IMG/VR virus record: IMGVR_UViG_2693429774_000016
Length of the DNA stretch: 10,951 nucleotides
Reading direction: 5' to 3' (one strand)
DNA from: a virus
Lineage: Duplodnaviria; Heunggongvirae; Uroviricota; Caudoviricetes
Made by a program: the position numbers and the translations under genes. Numbering within the stretch: the stretch's first letter is position 1; each line of letters opens with the position of its first letter. Under the pieces are notes generated by a model. That model searched no databases. It worked only from the letters and a program-made list of their open reading frames with translations, and was not told where the DNA came from. Positions 1-10,951 of the stretch are shown here, one piece after another.

Positions 1-180
1 GCTTATATTCCTACAGGGATTGCTTATGCTATCTGGTCAGGAGTCGGTATTGTCCTGATTAGCTTACTATCATGGGGATTTTTCGGCCAACGGTTGGACC
101 TGCCAGCCATTATAGGCATGATGTTGATTTGTGCCGGTGTGTTGGTTATTAATTTATTGTCACGAAGCACGCCACATTAA
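1..180 (+). CDS. emrE: SMR-family multidrug efflux transporter EmrE, C-terminal 59 codons (5' end lies outside the window)
   Basis: Frame 1 translation [59 protein letters not shown] ends at TAA 178-180 and matches the C-terminus of E. coli EmrE as I recall it, with one conservative I/V difference. Recalled sequence, not a database hit. Confidence 0.9.
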
Positions 181-210
181 AAATAATTTGTTTTTAAACG
201 ACTAAAATAT

Positions 211-255
211 GGAGGCTCGTATATTTATATGGGCCTCGTTTTATGCTTTTTGTTA
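211..255 (+). terminator. Weak candidate intrinsic terminator downstream of emrE
   Basis: Short GAGGC (212-216) / GCCTC (233-237) stem with an AT-rich loop, followed by a T-rich stretch GTTTTATGCTTTTTG. The stem is only 5 bp, so this is tentative. Confidence 0.25.
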
Positions 256-435
256 ATGTCTTTAGTTTTTATTCATTCTTTTGTGCTTTCAAGATTATGG
301 TGTAAGAAAATTGCAATACGATTATTGTTGTATATTCAAGATAATGTGACCTTAATTGTCTTTTTAAATAAAAATTAAACAAAAATCATATCTCACCACT
401 AAGGTTTATAAAAGCATACTTTAGCAGGTGTCACC

Positions 436-1962
436 ATGAAAAAAGCCATAGCATATATGCGATTTTCATCACCAAGTCAGATGTCTGGTGATTCATTAAA
501 CCGCCAGAGAAGGCTTATTACTGAATGGCTAAAGGTAAATAGTGATTATTACCTTGATACCGTAACGTATGAAGATTTGGGGTTAAGCGCATTCAATGGA
601 AAGCATGCACAATCAGGAGCTTTTTCGGAATTTTTAGATGCTATAGAACATGGTTATATATTGCCAGGGACTACATTGTTAGTTGAAAGTCTGGACAGAC
701 TTTCAAGAGAAAAAGTCGGTGAGGCGATTGAGCGTCTGAAATTGATTTTGAATCACGGTATTGATGTTATAACTCTTTGCGATAATACAGTCTATAATAT
801 TGACTCATTGAATGAGCCATATTCATTAATAAAAGCCATACTTATAGCACAAAGGGCAAATGAAGAAAGCGAGATAAAGTCAAGTCGGGTTAAATTATCA
901 TGGAAGAAAAAACGGCAGGATGCACTGGAGTCAGGCACGATTATGACGGCGTCTTGTCCGAGATGGCTCTCATTGGATGACAAAAGAACGGCTTTTGTTC
1001 CAGACCCCGACAGGGTGAAAACTATTGAGCTAATTTTTAAACTCAGGATGGAAAGGCGCTCATTGAATGCAATAGCCAAGTATTTAAATGATCATGCTGT
1101 AAAGAATTTCTCAGGAAAAGAAAGTGCATGGGGACCTTCTGTAATTGAAAAATCATTAGCGAATAAAGCTCTGATAGGTATATGCGTACCTTCATATCGT
1201 GCAAGAGGTAAAGGAATAAGTGAAATCGCTGGCTATTATCCCAGAGTCATATCAGATGATTTGTTTTACGCTGTGCAGGAAATTCGGTTGGCACCTTTTG
1301 GTATTAGCAATAGTAGCAAAAATCCTATGTTGATAAATCTACTTCGAACAGTTATGAAGTGCGAGGCTTGTGGTAATACCATGATTGTTCATGCGGTATC
1401 TGGAAGTTTGCATGGCTATTATGTTTGTCCGATGAGAAGACTGCATCGATGTGACAGACCATCAATAAAGAGAGATTTGGTTGATTATAATATCATTAAT
1501 GAGTTGCTTTTTAATTGTAGTAAAATCCAACCAGTTGAAAACAAGAAAGATGCTAATGAAACTTTAGAGTTGAAAATTATTGAGCTCCAGATGAAAATTA
1601 ATAATTTAATTGCTGCATTATCTGTTGCGCCTGAAGTTACCGCTATAGCAGAAAAAATCAGAGTATTAGATAAGGAATTACGAAGGGCTTCTGTATCATT
1701 AAAAACTTTGAAGAGTAAAGCGGTGAGTTCACTTGGTGATTTTCATGCTATTGACTTAACCAGTAAAAATGGGCGAGAGCTATGTCGTACACTTGCCTAT
1801 AAAACATTCGAAAAAATCATAATCAATACAGATAATAAAACCTGTGATATCTATTTTATGAATGGCATTGTTTTTAAACACTATCCTTTAATGAAAACAA
1901 TATCCGCCCAGCAGGCGATAAGTACTCTCAAATATATGGTTGATGGTGAGGTTTATTTTTGA
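436..1962 (+). CDS. ybcK: Large serine recombinase (resolvase/invertase-type catalytic domain plus zinc-ribbon recombinase domain); likely prophage integrase/recombinase
   Basis: 508-aa ORF with SD AGGTG 5 nt upstream of the ATG. N-terminus YMRFSSPSQ fits the serine-recombinase catalytic-Ser motif. A Cys-x2-Cys ... Cys-x6-Cys segment (CEACGNT...YYVCPMRRLHRCD) is typical of the zinc ribbon of large serine recombinases, followed by a coiled-coil-like region. Size and position directly after emrE match the K-12 DLP12 gene ybcK; the symbol is from memory. Confidence 0.85.
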   Translation: MKKAIAYMRFSSPSQMSGDSLNRQRRLITEWLKVNSDYYLDTVTYEDLGLSAFNGKHAQSGAFSEFLDAIEHGYILPGTTLLVESLDRLSREKVGEAIERLKLILNHGIDVITLCDNTVYNIDSLNEPYSLIKAILIAQRANEESEIKSSRVKLSWKKKRQDALESGTIMTASCPRWLSLDDKRTAFVPDPDRVKTIELIFKLRMERRSLNAIAKYLNDHAVKNFSGKESAWGPSVIEKSLANKALIGICVPSYRARGKGISEIAGYYPRVISDDLFYAVQEIRLAPFGISNSSKNPMLINLLRTVMKCEACGNTMIVHAVSGSLHGYYVCPMRRLHRCDRPSIKRDLVDYNIINELLFNCSKIQPVENKKDANETLELKIIELQMKINNLIAALSVAPEVTAIAEKIRVLDKELRRASVSLKTLKSKAVSSLGDFHAIDLTSKNGRELCRTLAYKTFEKIIINTDNKTCDIYFMNGIVFKHYPLMKTISAQQAISTLKYMVDGEVYF

Positions 1963-2073
1963 GTAATAATCACTTTTTCAACCGTGCTATAGTAAGAAAG
2001 TTAGGTAAGTACAATAAAATTATCTATCCTGAACGAAGCGTCCTGAGCTATGGTTTTACTATAGGGACTGCCA

Positions 2074-2373
2074 ATGGATGCTGGCGTTCTCGTTCTAGCA
2101 GTTCAACAATACCCAATCACAAAACAATTCACTGATAACAAACTTTGTGCACGTGCTTGGTTATGGCGAGCAGGTGATGTGATGTTAACTGCCTGCCAGA
2201 ACGTTACTCCACTACTTCAGGTTGCGGAGCACCGCGAAGCCGGCCGCTTTACTTCTATCGAGCAAGAATATCCCCAGATACTCAACAGAGCGCGAGCAAT
2301 CCTCGCCAGAGAAACGGCACATGTAAAATTCCAGCCGTGGCTGGATGATAAGTGGAGTCGAGTGTTACCATAA
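2074..2373 (+). CDS. Hypothetical protein (99 aa), unknown function; possibly phage cargo or a gene remnant
   Basis: ORF with a GGGA-type weak RBS and a good stem-loop plus T-run terminator 45 nt downstream. No family recognised from the sequence. Confidence 0.45.
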   Translation: MDAGVLVLAVQQYPITKQFTDNKLCARAWLWRAGDVMLTACQNVTPLLQVAEHREAGRFTSIEQEYPQILNRARAILARETAHVKFQPWLDDKWSRVLP

Positions 2374-2416
2374 TTCCGTCAGAATCTGTTCCAATAAAGT
2401 CACTAGTTAGAAATAC

Positions 2417-2456
2417 TGCCAGCATTCTACGATGACGGAAGTGCTGGCATTTTTTG
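2417..2456 (+). terminator. Rho-independent terminator candidate
   Basis: TGCCAGCA (2417-2424) pairs perfectly with TGCTGGCA (2442-2449), with extra TTC/GAA pairing inside, followed by TTTTTT at 2451-2456. Confidence 0.55.
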
Positions 2457-2631
2457 GGTAATATGCGAGTCCATTTCATAAAATACGGGTGCTGTAAACT
2501 GGACGATATAATCTAAAATATACCATTACCAGTAGCGTTCAAATCGCTATGTGCCGATACGGATAAAATTATATTGATTGTGCACATACCTTATTGGATA
2601 TTACTGAGGGGTATTTATATAAGGTGTAACG

Positions 2632-3141
2632 ATGATGTGGAACTTTGACAGTGCCGACTTAAGTGCAATAGCAGCAGGTATTTCTGCGTTTGGCACATTA
2701 GCCGCAGCGGGGTCGGCGCTTGCAAGTTGGTACACGTCAAAAAAAGCGCTGCAGCTACAAAATAGAGTTTACCTTTATGAGTCTTTAAAGGCTTGCGCTG
2801 AGAGAGCCAATTCATCAGCTAAAGATAAGCGCGGATCTGAATGGAGCGTTAATGATGCAGCGGATATCATCAGGTGCCTAGTACGGGCGATGGAGATCAT
2901 CAAGCAGGATAGCCAGCAGAAAGAAGGTAATCAGGCATTAATGTTGAAACAGTACTTTGTTAATCTGCTAATAATGGAACTGTACGAGGAAGTTCATAAC
3001 GGTGATGCGGCTGATTCTGTTTTTAAAAGTACGGAACCTACACAAGTACTTGATAACTTATGGAGCAAATGGCAGGAGGCTATAGCTTTTTTTGATATTT
3101 GGAATTACCCAGTTGCGACTGAGGAAGACTTGGCAGACTAA
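2632..3141 (+). CDS. Hypothetical protein (169 aa) with an N-terminal hydrophobic, probably membrane-spanning segment and an acidic helical C-terminal domain; unknown function
   Basis: SD AAGGTG 5 nt upstream of ATG 2632. Residues ~10-35 (LSAIAAGISAFGTLAAAGSALASWY) form a hydrophobic helix. No recognisable family. The K-12 DLP12 neighbours ybcL and ybcM, as I recall them, are not here. Confidence 0.6.
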   Translation: MMWNFDSADLSAIAAGISAFGTLAAAGSALASWYTSKKALQLQNRVYLYESLKACAERANSSAKDKRGSEWSVNDAADIIRCLVRAMEIIKQDSQQKEGNQALMLKQYFVNLLIMELYEEVHNGDAADSVFKSTEPTQVLDNLWSKWQEAIAFFDIWNYPVATEEDLAD

Positions 3142-3335
3142 TTTTCAGCACATTTGATTTCCAATAATCAACCAGCCATAATCATGCCATTGGGGCCTGA
3201 ACAACTCCGGTGACTTCTGCGCTAAACGGGGACGTTTATGCGCACATACAATCCAACCTCTCTTCTCCATTCACAGATGCAGAAATGCACCTGCGATATT
3301 TTGCATCCAGCGTTTGATCTCTGCGGAGGTGAAGC

Positions 3336-3590
3336 GTGAACCTCCCACAAGATGGTATCAAATTGCATCGCGGTAACTTCACCGCTATCGGTCGGCAGAT
3401 CCAGCCTTATCTGGAGGACGGCAAATGCTTTCGCATGGTGCTTAAACCGTGGCGCGAGAGACGCAGTCTTTCCCAGAATGCACTCAGCCACATGTGGTAC
3501 AGCGAAATCAGTGAATACCTCATCAGCAAGGGTAAAACGTTCGCCACTCCAGCTTGGGTATCCGCACCGGCGGGCGCGTGCTGGCGGTAA
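3336..3590 (+). pseudogene. ybcN: NinB/YbcN-family protein, 5' fragment, truncated by fusion to tail-fibre DNA
   Basis: GTG start with GGAGG 8 nt upstream. The first ~73 codons contain WRERRSLSQNALSHMWYSEISEY, resembling the conserved RSLDQN...W core of lambda NinB and the recalled K-12 YbcN. Homology ends at about 3552 and the reading frame runs into J-like sequence. Confidence 0.55.
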
Positions 3591-4537
3591 ACAGCCAGAC
3601 CCGGACGCTGACGCTCGACCGTGAAATCACGCTGCCATCTTCCGGCACCACGCTGATAAGCCTGGTTGACGGGCAGGGGAGTCCGGTCAGCGTGGAGGTT
3701 CAGTCCGTCACCGACGGCGTGAAGGTGAAAGTGAGCCGTGTTCCTGACGGCGTTGCTGAATACAGCGTATGGGGGCTGAAGCTGCCGACGTTGCGCCAGC
3801 GCCTGTTCCGCTGCGTGAGTATCCGTGAGAACGACGACGGCACGTATGCCATCACCGCCGTGCAGCATGTACCGGAAAAAGAGGCCATCGTGGATATTGA
3901 GAACACCCCTGACGGCATGCAGAGTCAGGTGCTGCTGGCGGCGGACAGGATTGCGATGGTTAATCCTGCGAATGGCAACACAAAACCGATGTTTGTTGGT
4001 CAGGGCGATCAGATATTCATGAACGACGTGTTCCTGAAACGCCTGACGGCCCCCACCATTACCAGCGGTGGAAATCCACCGGCATTTTCCCTGACACCGG
4101 ACGGAAAGCTGACCGCTAAAAATGCGGATATCAGTGGCAGTGTGAATGCGAACGCCGGGACGCTCAACAATGTCACGGTAAATGAAAACTGTACGATTAA
4201 GGGCATGCTGGAGGCGACTCAGGTCAGAGGTGACTTCGTTAAAGCTGTATCCAAATCATTCCCGAAACAGGCTGGTACGTGGGGTAATACGGAAACACCA
4301 AACGGGACGGTTACAGTCACCATCAGCGATGATCATAACTTTGACCGTCAAATCATTATTCCGCCCATTATCTTTAACGGAATAGCGTATAGCGATCCGG
4401 GAAGTGGTAATATTGGTGCTCATACGCACTCCGTTGCGATTGGCTCACATGGACACACCATCACCGTTAACGCTGCTGGTAACGCGGAAAACACCGTCAA
4501 AAACATCGCATTTAACTACATTGTGAGGCTTGCATAA
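3554..4537 (+). CDS. Lambda J-like host-specificity / tail-tip protein fragment: central segment plus C-terminal region with internal deletion and a divergent C-terminal tip; likely a remnant
   Basis: Translation contains [22 protein letters not shown]...[18 protein letters not shown]...[35 protein letters not shown] and later [56 protein letters not shown]. Both match lambda J segments as I recall them, but the intervening J sequence is missing and the last ~60 residues differ. No genuine N-terminus: the ORF begins at a TTG just after the ninB-like junction. Confidence 0.7.
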
Positions 4538-5121
4538 TGGCATTCAGAATGAGTGAACAACCACGGACCATAAAAATTTATAATCTGCTGGCCGGAACTA
4601 ATGAATTTATTGGTGAAGGTGACGCATATATTCCGCCTCATACAGGTCTGCCAGCAAACAGTACCTATATTGCACCGCCAGATATTCCGGTAGGCTTCGT
4701 GGCTGTTTTCAACAGTGATGAGGCATCGTGGCATCTCGTTGAAGATCATCGGGGAAAAACCGTCTATGACGTGGCTTCCGGCGACTCGTTATTTATTTCT
4801 GAACTCGGACCTCTACCGGAAAATATCACCTGGTTATCCCCGGAAGGGGAGTTTCAGAAGTGGAACGGCACAGCCTGGGTGAAGGATACGGAAGCAGAAA
4901 AACTGTTCCGGATCCGGGAGGCGGAAGAAACAAAAAACAGCCTGATGCAGGTAGCCAGTGAGCATATTGCCCCGCTTCAGGATGCTGCAGATCTGGAAAT
5001 CGCAACGGAGGAAGAAACCTCGTTGCTTGAAGCCTGGAAGAAGTATCGGGTGTTGCTGAATCGTGTTGATACATCAACTGCACCTGATATTGAGTGGCCT
5101 GCAATCCCTGTTATGGAATAA
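4537..5121 (+). CDS. tfa: Tail fibre assembly protein (lambda Tfa family), apparently full length
   Basis: 194-aa ORF beginning [39 protein letters not shown], near-identical to recalled lambda Tfa. Its ATG overlaps the upstream stop (TAATG), the usual fibre/chaperone coupling. Confidence 0.9.
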
Positions 5122-5240
5122 TAGTTTTGTGATATGCCGCAGAAACGTTATATGCAATAACGTGCTGCGGTTGGCTGATGTACTTTCGAGAGTGTATTGA
5201 ATAATTTCCAACCGTCATTAATTTTATTTATTTTTTGTAT

Positions 5241-5264
5241 GAGAGGATTTGAACCTCCGAGCCT
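5241..5264 (-). other. tRNA-Pro 3' fragment (T-arm relic), probable integration-site scar or module junction
   Basis: Minus-strand sequence TCGGAGGTTCAAATCCTCTC (plus 5241-5260) has a canonical T-arm (GGAGG stem, TTCAAAT loop, CCTCT). It matches the T-arm region of E. coli tRNA-Pro (proL-type) as I recall it over about 20 nt. No acceptor stem, CCA end or 5' half is present. Confidence 0.5.
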
Positions 5265-5454
5265 CGACACCTTATGACAACGCGATATTGCCTTGATGAC
5301 CGCCATGTGCCAAAATAACCAATTGATAAATAAGTTGATTTTAATTGGTTGGAAGCAAGTCAGGTCAAATTCAGCATTCCGCTCTCTGTATCGGATAGTT
5401 AAATTTTTCTATAACTGATAGTAATATGTTAAAACTCACACAGATAAATTATCA

Positions 5455-7437
5455 TTGCTCAACAAGTATAATGGAGTTCCCGTGGATACAGCAGAACATG
5501 ATGGCAAGTTTGCTTGGGCTAGTTTTTATGAGGCTTTTGCCAACGCGTTACTGACTTGGCGAAATCGTAGAGATGAATTAGTCAAAGGTATTCATCTAAT
5601 TGCCTCGGGTGTGGAAGGAATGTCCCATCTGCAGGACAAATCTATTATGGGAGAGATCTTTCCCTTAAAAGACATTTGTCCGTTTACTACTATGGGCTTG
5701 TTCAATCGTAACTTGACCGACAGCAATCGCAAAATTATTGCTGCCAAGCTAGCGAATTTGTTGGGCGTGAACGAACCGATTCCTGACTCCTTTGCCGGAA
5801 TCCCTCTGTTGAATAACCAAAAATCTTGGTTCTTTGGTTATGAAAAGTCACGCGACCCTAATGACATTGAATGCTTGTGGGAAATGTTCTCACAGGCAAT
5901 GATCTTTGCGGATAACCAGAATACTAACTCTGCAGACTTCACTGCCGCATATGACATCGCTTCTACAGTAATGAATGTCGGTTGGAATCTCACCATGGGG
6001 TTGTACTGGACCCGTCCTTGGTTCTACCCCACTTTAGATAGCCAGTCGCAGTATTACATTCAGACAGTGTTAAACATTAAGATCATTAAAAACGGGGCAA
6101 AAGGTCGCTGTAGTGGACAAAGTTACCTGAGTCTTATGCGGGCGCTGAACGAGGTCTTTACCCAACCAAACTATCCGGTTCATTCTTTCCCAGAACTTTC
6201 CTTATCAGCGTGGAATACAGATCTTAGCCAGTCTAAAGATGAGGTGGCAAATAGAACGTGGAAAGCCTCTTTACTGAATAAAATTAAGGCGTTATGCCTG
6301 AAAAAAAATGGCCCTTATTTCACTGCTTCGGAGTTGGAAGAAAACTACTTGGACGTATTCAAGGTAGAGCATCCTGAGAGCAAAACTGTTACAAGCTCAA
6401 TCTACTTTTATCTACAGAAACTATGCAATGATGATGAGTTAAAGTCCCTCGAGTCCGGAAATTATGAATACCTGAATTTTGAGAAAAACGAATCCCAGAC
6501 GATAACTGAGGAAACTGTCGAAGAGAGTGCGCTGTTGCCAAAACTCACCCACGTTCCTTATGACATCAGTCATCTGGTGCAGGATGGCTGTTTCTTGGAA
6601 GAGGCTAAGATCCAACTCACACTTCAGCGCCTGATCGACAAGAAAAACCTGATATTACAAGGACCACCCGGAACTGGAAAAACTTGGTTAGCGCGACGTC
6701 TGGCGTACTGCTTGATGGGAGAAAAAGCACCTGAGCGTATTAGCGCGGTGCAATTTCACCCGAACCTCTCTTACGAAGACTTTATTCGAGGCTGGCGTCC
6801 AGGTAAAGAAGGGCAATTGACGCTAATTGATGGACCTTTTGTAAATGCAATCAAAACTGCAGTCAATAATCCTACCTCGAAATATGTGGTGATAATTGAA
6901 GAGATTAATCGTGGCAATCCGGCGCAAATCTTCGGTGAAACACTCACGTTGATGGAAGCAGATAAACGCACGCCGACTGAGGCATTATCTCTTTCCTATC
7001 CTAAAAATGCTGATGAAAAAATATACATTCCTGAGAATCTATATATCATCGGTACGATGAATATTGCAGACCGCTCACTCGCACTACTTGACCTAGCGCT
7101 GCGCCGTCGTTTCGCGTTTATCGATCTAAAGCCAGCTTTTAATGACGCGTGGAGAAACTGGGTAAATTATAATTACGCAATTGATTTTGACATGTTAGCA
7201 TTCATCAAATCTCGACTGACGGTATTAAACGATATGCTGGCAAAAGATGTTACCTTAGGACCACAGTTTTGTATCGGTCACAGCTATGTCACCCCAGCTA
7301 TCGGCCAAAAAATCAACGATGCCCAGGCTTGGTATGAACAAGTCGTTGATACAGAGATCTGCCCTTTGCTCGCCGAATATTGGTTCGATGCTCCAAATAA
7401 AGTCGATGAAGCCAGAAAAGTGTTATTAGCAAAATGA
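5455..7437 (+). CDS. McrB-like GTPase subunit of a type IV modification-dependent restriction system, with an unrecognised ~400-aa N-terminal domain
   Basis: C-terminal ~260 aa align to recalled K-12 McrB: Walker A GPPGTGKT (6661-6684), Walker B-like VVIIEEINRGN, GTP-specificity motif MNIADRSLA, and RRRFAFIDL. The ORF begins at TTG 5455; GTG 5482 preceded by GGAG with a 5-nt spacer may be the true start. The N-terminal domain resembles nothing I recognise. Confidence 0.85.
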   Translation: MLNKYNGVPVDTAEHDGKFAWASFYEAFANALLTWRNRRDELVKGIHLIASGVEGMSHLQDKSIMGEIFPLKDICPFTTMGLFNRNLTDSNRKIIAAKLANLLGVNEPIPDSFAGIPLLNNQKSWFFGYEKSRDPNDIECLWEMFSQAMIFADNQNTNSADFTAAYDIASTVMNVGWNLTMGLYWTRPWFYPTLDSQSQYYIQTVLNIKIIKNGAKGRCSGQSYLSLMRALNEVFTQPNYPVHSFPELSLSAWNTDLSQSKDEVANRTWKASLLNKIKALCLKKNGPYFTASELEENYLDVFKVEHPESKTVTSSIYFYLQKLCNDDELKSLESGNYEYLNFEKNESQTITEETVEESALLPKLTHVPYDISHLVQDGCFLEEAKIQLTLQRLIDKKNLILQGPPGTGKTWLARRLAYCLMGEKAPERISAVQFHPNLSYEDFIRGWRPGKEGQLTLIDGPFVNAIKTAVNNPTSKYVVIIEEINRGNPAQIFGETLTLMEADKRTPTEALSLSYPKNADEKIYIPENLYIIGTMNIADRSLALLDLALRRRFAFIDLKPAFNDAWRNWVNYNYAIDFDMLAFIKSRLTVLNDMLAKDVTLGPQFCIGHSYVTPAIGQKINDAQAWYEQVVDTEICPLLAEYWFDAPNKVDEARKVLLAK

Positions 7438-8555
7438 CGACAATAACCGGGAGTGAGCAACATACAGCATCACGTATTCCCATGCGAAATATCTGGATGC
7501 TGATGCTGTACGCTTCAGATCTGTTTCGCCAGTTAGGGCGCAATCAGATCGCAGTAGAAGATAACCCAGCAGAAATCCCCGACCTGGTGGCGACAATCCT
7601 CCTTCATGAGATTACGCTGCGCCGACGTCGCAATTTAAATATGGGATACCAAACTTGTCATGCGGCCCTGAACCGGGTGAGAGGGCGCATTGACATACTG
7701 TATACTGCCAGTCATCAACTGCTGGAACGGGGACAGGTTGCCTGCCATTTTCAAGACATAACCCTCAACACCCCCCGAAATCGCTATGTTCGCTGTGCGT
7801 TAGAACGTCTGGCCTCAATCATAGTGAAACCGTCTTTGGCGGCAGATTGCCATTTTATGGCAATATCACTTCGCCGTGAGGGGATAAATGGAGGATATCC
7901 TGCCCCCCGCGAATTACCCTCAGTGTGGCGTTTTGGACGCCATGATGCCGCAGATAAACCGATGGTCGATGCCGCACGATTAGCTTTTGAACTGCTGATG
8001 CCGACCGAAGATCAAGGCCAATATCTTTTACCTGCGCCCTCAAATAACCTTTACTGGATGAGAAGACTATTTGAAAAAGGTATCGCTGGCTTATATCGTG
8101 TACACCTTGCCAAAACAACTTGGCAGGTCTCTGCAGGGAAAGAGCTGAAATGGGCGTTGAGCGATCAAAGTGCAGGTAGTGCAGAGATTTTCCCGACAAT
8201 GAAGTCAGACATTATTCTGGAACACAAGACTGCCCAGCGGCGTATTATTATCGATACCAAATTTAATTCGATTCTGACAAAGGGTTGGCATCGGGAGCAA
8301 TCACTACGTAATGGCTATATTTATCAGCTATATACCTACCTTAGAACACAGGAGAACAAGACGGATCCGCTTTCGCTCAATGCCGCTGGTCTTCTACTTC
8401 ATCCAGCTGTTGGCTATATGCTTAATGAGTATGTTGTCACTCAGGGACATAAGATCCATTTTGCTACAGTAGATATGACGGTAGATGCTAAAGCAATTAA
8501 AAAACAATTGCTGGCAATAGCCCATGATTGTGCAGGAGTCGCGGTTGATGACTAA
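7434..8555 (+). CDS. McrC-like PD-(D/E)xK endonuclease subunit of a type IV restriction system
   Basis: 373-aa ORF whose ATG overlaps the McrB-like stop (ATGA at 7434-7437). The N-terminal PMRNIWMLMLYA resembles K-12 McrC PVRNIYYMLTYAW. SDIIL ... IIIDTKF parallels McrC TDITI ... IVDAKYY, so the catalytic D ... D-x-K appears intact. Confidence 0.85.
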   Translation: MTTITGSEQHTASRIPMRNIWMLMLYASDLFRQLGRNQIAVEDNPAEIPDLVATILLHEITLRRRRNLNMGYQTCHAALNRVRGRIDILYTASHQLLERGQVACHFQDITLNTPRNRYVRCALERLASIIVKPSLAADCHFMAISLRREGINGGYPAPRELPSVWRFGRHDAADKPMVDAARLAFELLMPTEDQGQYLLPAPSNNLYWMRRLFEKGIAGLYRVHLAKTTWQVSAGKELKWALSDQSAGSAEIFPTMKSDIILEHKTAQRRIIIDTKFNSILTKGWHREQSLRNGYIYQLYTYLRTQENKTDPLSLNAAGLLLHPAVGYMLNEYVVTQGHKIHFATVDMTVDAKAIKKQLLAIAHDCAGVAVDD

Positions 8556-8911
8556 CCATCCTATAAGGCACTGGCTGTAATATAATCAATAGTTTCAATT
8601 AAGTAGCTGTTATCCGTGCTTAGTCATCATATGACGCACCACGGTCTAATTTTCCTGCTCATACATTGATATATCCTTGTCGTGCCCGGAAAGTCGCAGT
8701 CCACTATGAGGTATACCGATTGCCAGCACCAAAAGCTTCTTTGTGATTATTATATCGGGGAATGCCTATTTTTTTAGTGACAATATCAGATAGCAATTAA
8801 TAAGCGGTGCCGGTAATGGATGTTATGTTTAATGTATAGACACAGCCATCATAAACTAAACGTCTGTTGTTCGCTCATAACCGACATTTATCTCAGTTAT
8901 GGAGGATAATT

Positions 8912-8992
8912 ATGTATGCAGATAATGGGGCAGACAGTCGTGGAGTAAACAAGGTTTTGCACTGCTTGGCGGCATCGTTATCTTATTTTTAA
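8912..8992 (+). CDS. Candidate small ORF (26 aa, MYADNGADSRGVNKVLHCLAASLSYF) with a strong Shine-Dalgarno; speculative
   Basis: GGAGG at 8901-8905 sits 6 nt upstream of ATG 8912; stop TAA at 8990-8992. It lies in an otherwise ORF-free arm. No homology recognised. Confidence 0.2.
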   Translation: MYADNGADSRGVNKVLHCLAASLSYF

Positions 8993-9255
8993 TTATGTGC
9001 CTCTTAACATAAGTTGGGACAAAACAGAGACACATAAGGTCTCACAAAGGTCTGCAAGGCCTCACATGTATTGAGATGTTAATAAAATGTAGACTTGTAA
9101 TTTGGATATAAATGGTAGAGAAAACCTTTCCCCAAAATAAAAACGAACGTCAATGAAATCAAACGGTTGAATAAAGTTTATTTTGGCTAATAAAAAGACA
9201 ATAAAATAATTTTTATCGTTAAATATCAATGACTTGAATTCATGGTTTTTATATA

Positions 9256-9420
9256 CTGCTGCGCCATATGGGTTGGACTGAAGCGGCTGACCTGATTGTT
9301 AAAGGTATGGAAGGCGCAATCAATGCCAAGACCGTAACTTATGACTTCGAACGTCTGATGGAAGGCGCTAAGCTGCTGAAATGTTCAGAGTTTGGTGAAG
9401 CGATCATCGAAAACATGTAA
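9256..9420 (+). pseudogene. icdC: Isocitrate dehydrogenase 3' fragment (icdC-type attachment-site duplication), last ~55 codons only
   Basis: Translation [54 protein letters not shown] matches the C-terminus of E. coli Icd as I recall it. The sequence upstream of 9256 is non-coding and AT-rich, so this is an isolated fragment. Its length, about 165 bp, equals the icd duplication known for e14-type integration. Confidence 0.85.
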
Positions 9421-9443
9421 TCTCTCCATGTGTTAAATATTGA

Positions 9444-9475
9444 AACGGGCGTATAACACGCCCGTTGTTTTATTT
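9444..9475 (+). terminator. Rho-independent terminator (icd-type), placed between the convergent icdC fragment and iraM
   Basis: AACGGGCG (9444-9451), loop TATAACA, CGCCCGTT (9459-9466), then GTTTTATTT. Confidence 0.8.
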
Positions 9476-9522
9476 ATGTGGATATTATTAATAGCATATC
9501 GAGCATATTTATATGAAGCCCA

Positions 9523-9846
9523 TTACTTGAGCCCATATGGGCATATTTTTATAATGCAACTATTATGTAAACATTTATTTGTTATTTTGCTTTCTCCTGG
9601 AGGACACTCTTGACTGCTTTTGAGTAAACTCCATAAATCCTTGTTGAATGGTGCGATGTGATAAATAGTAATAGGATATTCTTTATCCTTAAGGATAATA
9701 CCAGACTTAACCGGTGTAAATATACTGCCAGGAGGGAGAAATATAGTAGATTGATACCAGATGATCATTTTCATATTACCCCATATGGCTGAAAAAGATA
9801 TACCACATGTAGGTTGAATTACCGTGTCAATTACTATCCACTTCAT
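9523..9846 (-). CDS. iraM: Anti-adaptor protein IraM (inhibits RssB-mediated RpoS degradation)
   Basis: 107-aa minus-strand [35 protein letters not shown]... matches K-12 IraM (formerly YcgW) as I recall it in length and sequence. Its position next to icdC agrees with the K-12 gene order. Confidence 0.85.
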
Positions 9847-10309
9847 TTGTTATGTCTTATCCCACGGTATTTAATATGGTTCATTAGGATGTTTATTTCT
9901 TGATTTTGCATATGAGTATATTACCCCCCCCCTCAAAAAAATAAATTAATTAAAATGATGGCTTATATAAAATAAAATTTAAAGCAAGGAATCTCAATGG
10001 ATGTTAAACAAAATGAGATTTTGTGAAAGCAATAAATTATTGACTTCGTTTTAGATTTGTTTAGCTATAATGTTATACATTCAAATGACTGAACATCCTG
10101 TAATTAAAACATAGCCTTTATGCTACTTTGTGCCAATTTGCTAAACATTATGGTTGCCTTTTTATATAACGATAATAATGAATATAAGCATGACATGAGA
10201 ATAAGGTTTCAATTTTTGAGTTATATAGGAATGATTTAACCTGTTCCTGGCTAAAATACATATAACCGGATGATGACTAAACCAAAATACATGTGCGTTA
10301 AGTATTGAA

Positions 10310-10337
10310 ACGGACGTGTGGCACGGCCGTTGTTTTT
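10310..10337 (+). terminator. Second, degenerate icd-type terminator copy (stem-loop plus T-run)
   Basis: ACGGACGTG / CACGGCCGT stem with one mismatch, followed by TGTTTTT. The preceding ~25 nt (CATGTGCGTTAAGTATTGAAACGG) closely resemble the sequence before the 9444 terminator (CATGTGTTAAATATTGAAACGG). Confidence 0.5.
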
Positions 10338-10546
10338 ATAAATATGTTAACCGTTATAAAATAACGTATCAAAAGTCAAGTGATCACATTTCAAATATCA
10401 AGTTGATAGTATTAGTCTGGTGATTATTTATGGGTGACAATAAAAAGACAGTATTAATCATCCATAGAGATAGTCTCTGCACTTTTATTTCCATTATGCT
10501 AATGCCTTACTGAATTATGAAGCATTTCTTAAGTATCCAACTTTAG

Positions 10547-10951
10547 CTAGATTAATGGTTTATTATTTTCTACATCTTCAATATATAAAAGCGTATTATC
10601 AATGGCGTAGTAACTGCGTTTGTTATGATTAACATCAGTAACCCACCGGAAAACGCCCGCACCTGCCAGTGTTGAACAGTATTCCCGAAATGTAGATTTT
10701 CCGCAAATATGAAGCAATGCGGCCTCTTTTATTTTAGCAGGGTTCTTGGTCGTACTAACTTTTAACAGGTTCCTGGTTCCTCTTAATAACAAAACCGTAT
10801 CATCGTGAGTAATAATTCTGATGTTATCCGTAGCCAGATAATAAATGTAATGTGCAATACGGTGATGTTTTAATTCTGAATAAAACCAGGAGAAGTTTTG
10901 CTCTTTTCTCACTTGCTCAAACATCTTTTGAAAAACAACGACCTGATCCAT
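10547..10951 (-). CDS. ycgX: Conserved hypothetical protein (YcgX-like); start codon is the last three bases of the window
   Basis: 134-aa minus-strand ORF beginning at the window edge (reverse complement of CAT at 10949-10951). In K-12 the gene next to iraM is ycgX, a protein of this size. Symbol assigned by synteny and memory only. Confidence 0.6.
   Translation of the reverse strand: MDQVVVFQKMFEQVRKEQNFSWFYSELKHHRIAHYIYYLATDNIRIITHDDTVLLLRGTRNLLKVSTTKNPAKIKEAALLHICGKSTFREYCSTLAGAGVFRWVTDVNHNKRSYYAIDNTLLYIEDVENNKPLI

Follow-up and report, generated by a model that had tools for sequence, protein, structure and literature searches.

We investigated the origin of iraM in a 10,951-nucleotide (nt) stretch of DNA (IMG/VR record IMGVR_UViG_2693429774_000016, hereafter the window), the whole of which is 100% identical to Escherichia coli strain E2. 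A lambdoid prophage resides in icd in this DNA, and iraM with its AT-rich upstream region is positioned exactly between two copies of the icd terminator, copy 1 (9427-9471, plus strand) and copy 2 (10290-10336, plus strand). Such a bracket had been proposed in a preliminary description of the same DNA and was borne out. We consider it probable that copy 2 represents the remains of a once-working icd 3' end, displaced by an icd-targeting integration, and that the locus was formed by three events in the order described below. Our results support the view that iraM sits in the remains of an old icd insertion and is neither native E. coli DNA nor a part of the present prophage.

The two terminator copies are homologous. 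Their alignment gave 39 identical columns out of 47, with 6 mismatches and a 2-nt gap, and the similarity extended beyond the stem to the unpaired leader and the loop. The score was 53, compared with 19.8 +/- 2.3 (maximum 33) for 1000 dinucleotide shuffles (z ~14), so the pairwise likeness supposed in the preliminary description was highly significant. Its second stem-loop, placed at about 10285-10337, is present, and we refined the coordinates to 10290-10336. Further, we compared 10200-10345 with 2.3 Gb of phage genomes using blastn, and the sole matches were icd terminators of icd-integrating phages (E = 2e-4).

Copy 1 consists of the post-stop leader and the intrinsic terminator of icd, with the stem-loop GGGCGTATAACACGCCC at 9444-9466 followed by a T-run. 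Its hairpin has nine pairs (-18.4 kcal/mol, z = -4.0), and a G+C-rich hairpin with a T-run is what is expected of a Rho-independent terminator. It belongs to a displaced icd 3' fragment of 165 nt (9256-9420, plus strand) with the last 54 codons and the stop codon, which lies on the side of the right attachment site (attR) of the resident prophage. This fragment is an icd pseudogene fragment in the RefSeq annotation of strain E2, and homology to intact icd and to phage-borne icd modules begins at 9256-9262. The 165-bp fragment with its terminator, reaching to 9471, had been correctly recognized in the preliminary description. The same text spoke of two icd 3' sequences; the second copy is real, but it is shorter and comprises leader and terminator only. 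In copy 2 (GGACGTGTGGCACGGCC) part of the leader is retained and the terminator is degenerate: one stem position is mismatched, the terminator fold is not the minimum-energy one (z = -0.75), and a five-pair remnant was detected. We searched for a third relic downstream up to minD or umuC and found none. On the minus strand, the copy 1 hairpin reaches -17.3 kcal/mol and lies 57 nt beyond the iraM stop codon. Judging from this fold, the copy 1 terminator is probably bidirectional and may end iraM transcripts as well as the convergent icd ones.

A diverged haplotype of the locus was reached through a 73%-identity IraM homologue on Logan contig L238 and an 89%-identity YcgX homologue on contig L242, and then in 19 complete E. 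coli genomes. In strain 2013C-4282 (L245) the order is rluE, intact icd, terminator, a well-preserved P' arm of the type found in prophage e14 of E. coli K-12, a gene for a 455-amino-acid hypothetical protein, an IS5 fragment and trkG. These are followed by a separate hairpin terminator, iraM, a ymgB-like gene, the AT-rich region, 243 extra nt, a relic of an icd end, ycgX and bluR. The relic reads CATGCTATCAAGAATATGTTAA-cgctatacctaTTAAGTACTGAACGGGCATATAACACGCCCGTTGTATTT, which corresponds to the final seven codons of icd with its stop, followed by leader and terminator. Aligned with the icd end from the Ile-413 codon to the terminator, it matched in 56 of 67 columns with a score of 77, compared with 18.8 +/- 2.4 for shuffled sequences. 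The exact 13-mer of the coding match alone was reached by 3 of 500 shuffles, yet it is collinear with the leader. A three-way alignment showed that the flanks of this relic are homologous to those of copy 2 on both sides. Compared with the diverged haplotype, the window has a deletion of approximately 257 nt exactly at the place of the icd codons, and the right edge of 9847-10289 is the junction. The TTAAG variant of the leader was confined to the two relics; TTAAA or a different variant was present in copy 1 and in every other icd-type leader seen. Taken together, the codons of the orthologous relic, the homologous flanks, the deletion at the codons and the shared TTAAG argue that copy 2 is the stump of a displaced icd 3' end, more than a duplicated terminator. 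Since the orthologous relic retains codons and the stop, the displaced piece should have begun inside icd. Nucleotide alignment, tblastn and a phage database search of the additional 243 nt revealed no icd sequence past approximately seven codons.

The diverged island extends over 6.3 kb from the working icd end to the relic and holds iraM. Comparison of the haplotypes therefore indicates that everything between the working icd end and the relic, iraM included, was inserted. iraM, the AT-rich upstream region (74% identity between strain 2013C-4282 and the window) and the relic are syntenic in both haplotypes. In the diverged one, a different hairpin terminator, iraM's own, stands in the place of copy 1. 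No integrase was found in the 6.3-kb island of strain 2013C-4282. The gene for the 455-amino-acid protein, which has no Pfam match, and a trkG copy lie between icd and iraM in all 19 genomes (16357-20134 of L245; also in L242); trkG of K-12 is presumably a Rac prophage gene. Over the 6.4-kb ycgX-pdeG region the diverged haplotype is 93.5% identical to common E. coli. For NudJ, encoded upstream of icd, the RefSeq protein is shared with other strains, and the RluE and Icd accessions differ. Such a pattern of similarity suggests that the diverged haplotype is old or introgressed.

Immediately right of copy 2, a 50-nt sequence (10337-10386, plus strand) resembles an e14-type P' arm, including the arm in the left attachment site (attL) of e14 in K-12, at the same offset from the terminator. 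Against nine e14-type arms this flank scored 27-35, compared with 17-19 +/- 2-2.6 for shuffled sequences. The observed score was reached by at most 2 of 300 shuffles for any arm, and by none of 300 for six of the nine. The GCTAACGGTTATCAAAA...TTATCAAAA repeats, which characterize an e14-type attL at a fixed offset after the terminator, were found in degenerate form and are putative Int-binding sites. We observed no similarity to the 21-type arm in the copy 2 flank, and the 21-type arm motif was absent when searched for within the iraM segment. The sequence of 10337-10386 also follows the single terminator in iraM-less genomes; its degenerate GTTATCAAAA-like repeats suggest that it is a decayed arm and not a source sequence copied by a phage. 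Given the e14-type arm in its right flank, copy 2 itself would once have been a phage-supplied icd end, an old attL, and the window would then hold at least three insertion layers.

Phages that integrate in icd (phage 21, lambda-like) carry a 218-nt module in which the icd 3' end is followed by leader and terminator, and phage-host homology stops right after GTTGTTTT. The iraM segment therefore starts at the nucleotide where phage DNA starts in attL. In approximately 50 E. coli-type copies, either host or phage-borne, the stem-loop GGGCGTATAACACGCCC was almost invariant (one variant), and the leaders varied. The sequence after the T-run fell into three classes, namely phage arms of the 21 type (ATGATGATGTAAAATCTTCCCCAAAAC) or the e14 type (TTGTTAGNCTGCTAACGGTTATCAAAA), the iraM flank (ATTTATGTGG) and the empty-site flank (TATAAATATGTTAACC).

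The distribution of these arrangements was assessed in 5426 complete E. coli genomes. We detected the iraM segment in 3943 of them (~73%), an empty iraM-less site in 1037 and the diverged larger island in 19. In the remaining genomes, e.g. O157:H7, the entire ymgL-ycgX flank was absent. The preliminary description had named uniform presence of iraM in genomes that never carried an element at icd as speaking against its proposal; iraM was not universal in our survey. Each empty site has a single terminator with a copy 1-type leader and stem-loop and a copy 2-type right flank, and the empty allele differs by a clean indel with the repeat at its edges, the outer flanks being the same (e.g. NC101). 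Every empty site sampled came from a B2-type strain (e.g. NC101, CFT073 and LF82) and was a displaced fragment on the far side of an island in icd. Strains without a prophage in icd retain iraM together with copy 2, and therefore iraM is not part of e14. Separately, in O157:H7 (L004 and others) the query matched in the icd part only, with iraM, copy 2, ymgL and ycgX all absent, which points to a larger deletion or replacement beyond the icd prophage.

A check for an association of iraM with the second copy had also been suggested, and we found the copy-2-type stem-loop solely beside iraM in E. coli genomes, IMG/VR and metagenomes. The form GGACGT[G/A]TGGCACG[G/C]CC had an iraM-side left flank in 13 of 13 IMG/VR cases and 28 of 28 metagenome cases, and it did not occur outside the iraM context in either collection. 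A chimeric query designed for hybrids of the two terminators, i.e. iraM-less sites with the copy 2 stem-loop, gave 0 of the 5426 genomes. The right flank of empty sites was 96-97% identical to the window, while the diverged haplotype was 77-93% identical there. If the relics are orthologous, parsimony slightly favours the view that B2-type strains lost iraM when copy 1 and copy 2, then more alike, recombined. Against such a loss stand the lack of hybrid products among the genomes surveyed and the fact that the flanks could be shuffled by recombination. We lean somewhat towards deletion over an ancestral empty site. In sequence, the minority copy 2 allele GGACGTATGGCACGCCC falls between copy 1 and the major allele of copy 2, so copy 2 kept diverging within E. 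coli.

We propose a history in which we infer the order of the events, integrases rather than other recombination as the agents, and the arrival of iraM on the second element. Integrases of the e14 and phage 21 type recombine within icd approximately 165 nt before the stop codon, and their elements carry a replacement icd 3' end with a terminator. Because of this replacement end, each integration pushes the resident 3' end and the DNA downstream of it to the far side of the element. In the first event, an e14-like element would have supplied an icd end together with a P' arm, which may survive at 10337-10386 beside ymgL and ycgX. A second icd-targeting element would then have integrated and displaced the end supplied by the first. 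Later, this second element would have decayed to iraM and its AT-rich control region (9472-10289), while the displaced end would have lost its coding part and its hairpin would have degenerated. In the third event, the present prophage would have integrated and displaced the end that worked at the time, now seen as the 165-nt fragment with copy 1 (9256-9471).

The iraM gene (9523-9846, minus strand) was assigned by its RefSeq protein match, and the product is WP_001295666.1, the same protein in strain E2, strain 167 and K-12 MG1655. By homology it is an anti-adaptor of RssB of the IraM/RssC family. IraM belongs to a family found in phages, as it matched phrog_4407 over its full length (E = 4e-51). 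Stx2 phages and other lambdoid phages carry homologues (62-70% identity) as morons; such genes occurred in 45 genomes of Stx2 phages and on more than 200 stretches of IMG/VR. They are flanked by Q or stx on one side and by the lysis genes on the other, and are oriented against late transcription. Outside the coding region, the homology of chromosomal iraM to the phage copies extends no further than approximately 15 nt. The content of the bracket is of phage or foreign type in its phrog_4407 match and its G+C content, which is 26-35% for iraM with its upstream region. On E. coli contigs L239-L241 we observed an IraM homologue (66% identity) beside an IS21-family element, a GGDEF gene and perC; these surroundings match neither the late region of a phage nor the icd locus, and could belong to a plasmid or an island.

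The attR-proximal end, occupied by mcrA in e14 and by McrBC-like genes in the prophage of the window, holds iraM in the diverged island. This is the usual cargo place in icd phages, and the position supports iraM as cargo. It is likely that iraM came as cargo of the older element, although it could have entered the remnant later. Of the earlier proposal of successive icd integrations with iraM as cargo, the integrations are supported by the orthologous, codon-bearing relic, while the cargo part is no more than likely.

Several observations weigh against this history. In the window, local nucleotide alignment judged against shuffles detected no icd coding sequence on the left side of copy 2, and the diverged relic retains approximately 21-24 nt of icd coding sequence, which does not reach the crossover core approximately 165 nt before the stop codon. 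The similarity to the e14 arm covers just ~45 nt. There is no integrase, excisionase or structural phage gene between the copies in the window, where 9472-10289 holds iraM and small open reading frames. Such an absence is consistent with a decayed remnant but is no positive evidence for one. We searched for a present-day phage with an iraM-like gene beside the icd module of the phage attachment site (attP) and found none, and for this reason we do not put the cargo role of iraM above likely. The AT-rich upstream region had no match in phage collections. Finally, IraM of the diverged haplotype has only 72% amino-acid identity to IraM of the window, about as distant as the Stx-phage homologues, and the two chromosomal types could therefore be separate acquisitions.

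The last of these points also bears on another explanation, in which the integration scar is real but iraM entered the decaying remnant later, either as a separate insertion of the moron type or through recombination with a phage. We regard this as unlikely, though worth keeping in mind. It would fit the place of the phage IraM-like genes between Q and the lysis genes, away from att, the homology confined to the coding region and approximately 15 nt, and the 28% difference between the chromosomal IraM alleles, which suggests replacement or repeated acquisition. It fits less well with the diverged haplotype, in which iraM occupies the attR-proximal end of the island, and with the synteny of iraM, AT-rich region and relic in both haplotypes.

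Far less probable, in our opinion, is an insertion of iraM at the icd terminator itself, by a short element with its own diverged terminator or with a long target duplication, and without any crossover in the icd coding sequence. The repeat in the window is indeed confined to leader and terminator, the iraM-less allele is a clean indel with the repeat at its bounds, and copy 2 differed from copy 1 at no fewer than five positions (at least 5) already in the ancestor of its two E. coli alleles. An insertion of this kind would not account for the seven icd codons and stop codon of the orthologous relic (2013C-4282 / L238), unless the 21-nt match is fortuitous, nor for the e14-type arm in the copy 2 flank, which is expected of a former working icd end. 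We attach almost no weight to the idea that copy 2 is an unrelated ycgX-ymgL terminator resembling icd by chance or convergence. Although the minus-strand hairpin of copy 2 still folds (-10.8 kcal/mol) just downstream of ymgL, this idea is contradicted by the similarity of leader and loop (z ~14 against shuffles), by database matches that are solely icd terminators and by the icd codons of the orthologue. A displaced former icd end remains the reading that we prefer for copy 2.

The other features of the window were as follows. The right part of the resident lambdoid prophage, the third layer, occupies 1-9255 (plus strand, annotation of strain E2). It contains a recombinase (436-1962) and tail fibre genes according to the same annotation, as well as cargo of a McrB-like AAA protein and McrC (5455-8555, Pfam AAA_5 and McrBC matches). 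The McrB-like protein (660 amino acids, AAA_5) and McrC (373 amino acids) adjoin the prophage attR, so that this cargo has the position of mcrA in e14. The P arm of the resident prophage contains the motif TTTCCCCAAAA, which a motif search located at 9127-9137. A 51-nt spacer separates terminator copy 1 from the iraM stop codon (9472-9522, delimited by alignment with the diverged haplotype). The AT-rich iraM upstream region (9847-10289, minus strand, 26-32% G+C by computation, and annotation) includes the annotated small open reading frame ymgK (10104-10148) and a length-variable poly-C tract (9924-9932). This tract, approximately 80 nt upstream of the iraM start, varied from C7 to C10 among the fetched E. 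coli loci, with additional interrupted forms, e.g. CCCCTTC. It may be a slippage-prone element of the iraM control region, or a sequencing error. Beyond copy 2 lie the annotated small open reading frame ymgL (10384-10494, minus strand, annotation of strain E2) and ycgX (10547-10951, minus strand, DUF1398, phrog_413), a gene of phage-moron type.

In prophages of E. albertii, YcgX (phrog_413) is encoded by a moron located between Rz and Nu1. The ycgX gene adjoins the icd terminator in E. coli without iraM and in Citrobacter-like genomes. The Citrobacter-like scaffold L235 has icd, the terminator, a relic of a 21-type arm and then ycgX, with iraM absent, and in Citrobacter sp. (L233) and L178 the order is icd, terminator, an IS200 remnant and ycgX. 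The Citrobacter-like and E. coli loci together indicate that phage ends have repeatedly been left at the icd-adjacent position, and this in more than one genus. On L235 three TTCCCCAAAAC-like repeats of the phage-21-type arm (4440-4570, minus strand) are directly followed by ycgX, and this arrangement looks like the scar of a different integrase family at the same position. The closest YcgX homologues in other Escherichia were at the fliT-yedD locus or inside prophages, and none was at icd; of the outgroups reached through YcgX, Citrobacter-like genomes alone had ycgX beside icd. In Escherichia sp. E10V10 and relatives (L118-L121, L237) the closest YcgX (77% identity) is encoded between a yedF / tusA-like gene and an acetyltransferase gene near fliT, and DUF1398 genes thus occupy different chromosomal sites in related species.

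A broader interpretation, which we offer tentatively and do not consider probable as a whole, is that the stretch downstream of icd is a record of at least three integrase-mediated insertions. iraM, a PhoPQ-controlled RpoS stabiliser, would be a domesticated moron of the middle layer, and the flank of the oldest terminator an attL arm of the e14 type. The ymgL-ycgX end, possibly with the bluRF / ymg biofilm module, would have entered with or behind an e14-like element, and the terminator copies may still mediate loss of iraM, as in B2 strains. We found no earlier description of the relic beyond iraM in the literature searched. Replacement 3' ends, att relics and morons are well understood, and our result is a fresh instance of a known process, which it refines and does not overturn. 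It places iraM neither on e14 nor in the native chromosome but in an older insertion layer at icd. Such an origin would account for the patchy occurrence of a general stress response regulator, which ~73% of E. coli genomes have and B2-type strains lack. The locus also illustrates how an attachment site within a gene may gather cargo in layers, each marked by a decaying copy of the 3' end of the gene.

Previously, iraM was placed 'on the e14 prophage' and iraL on the potB island of CFT073 (Hryckowian et al. 2014, PMC4045071). In contrast to that placement, we find iraM outside e14, in an older layer, and present in strains without a prophage in icd. Like the morons of lambdoid phages, and like iraL on the potB island of CFT073, it is small, AT-rich, independently transcribed, phage- or island-borne and variable among E. 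coli strains.

The arrangement of e14, icd and icdC in E. coli K-12 and the phage-borne replacement icd ends are textbook knowledge (Hill, Gray and Brody 1989, as cited in passages of PMC6379469 and PMC13626634). The locus studied here shares with e14 a replacement icd 3' end and terminator carried by the element, the resident end being displaced as a direct repeat. The icd fragment with copy 1 is exactly such a displaced piece, and the copy 2 flank matches the e14 P' arm. Copy 2 differs from the e14 att in being much older and truncated (47 nt), with no coding part in the window and a degenerate hairpin. Its locus retains no integrase or phage body and lies outside e14 and all current prophages. 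In phage 21 and the lambda-like icd phages (INPHARED OL657228, NC_049946, NC_049948) the module ends after GTTGTTTT, at the point where the iraM segment begins. The phage 21-type arm with its TTCCCCAAAAC repeats differs from the arm beside copy 2, and none of the icd phages examined has an iraM-like gene beside the module.

At tRNA-gene islands, successive integrations at one target produce nested direct repeats of the target 3' end with cargo between them. By analogy, the icd locus may have grown in the same manner, as it has nested 3'-end repeats with intervening cargo genes. Its older icd repeats would be unusable by an integrase, because the recombination core has been lost. The difference from tRNA-gene islands is that the target here is a protein-coding gene.

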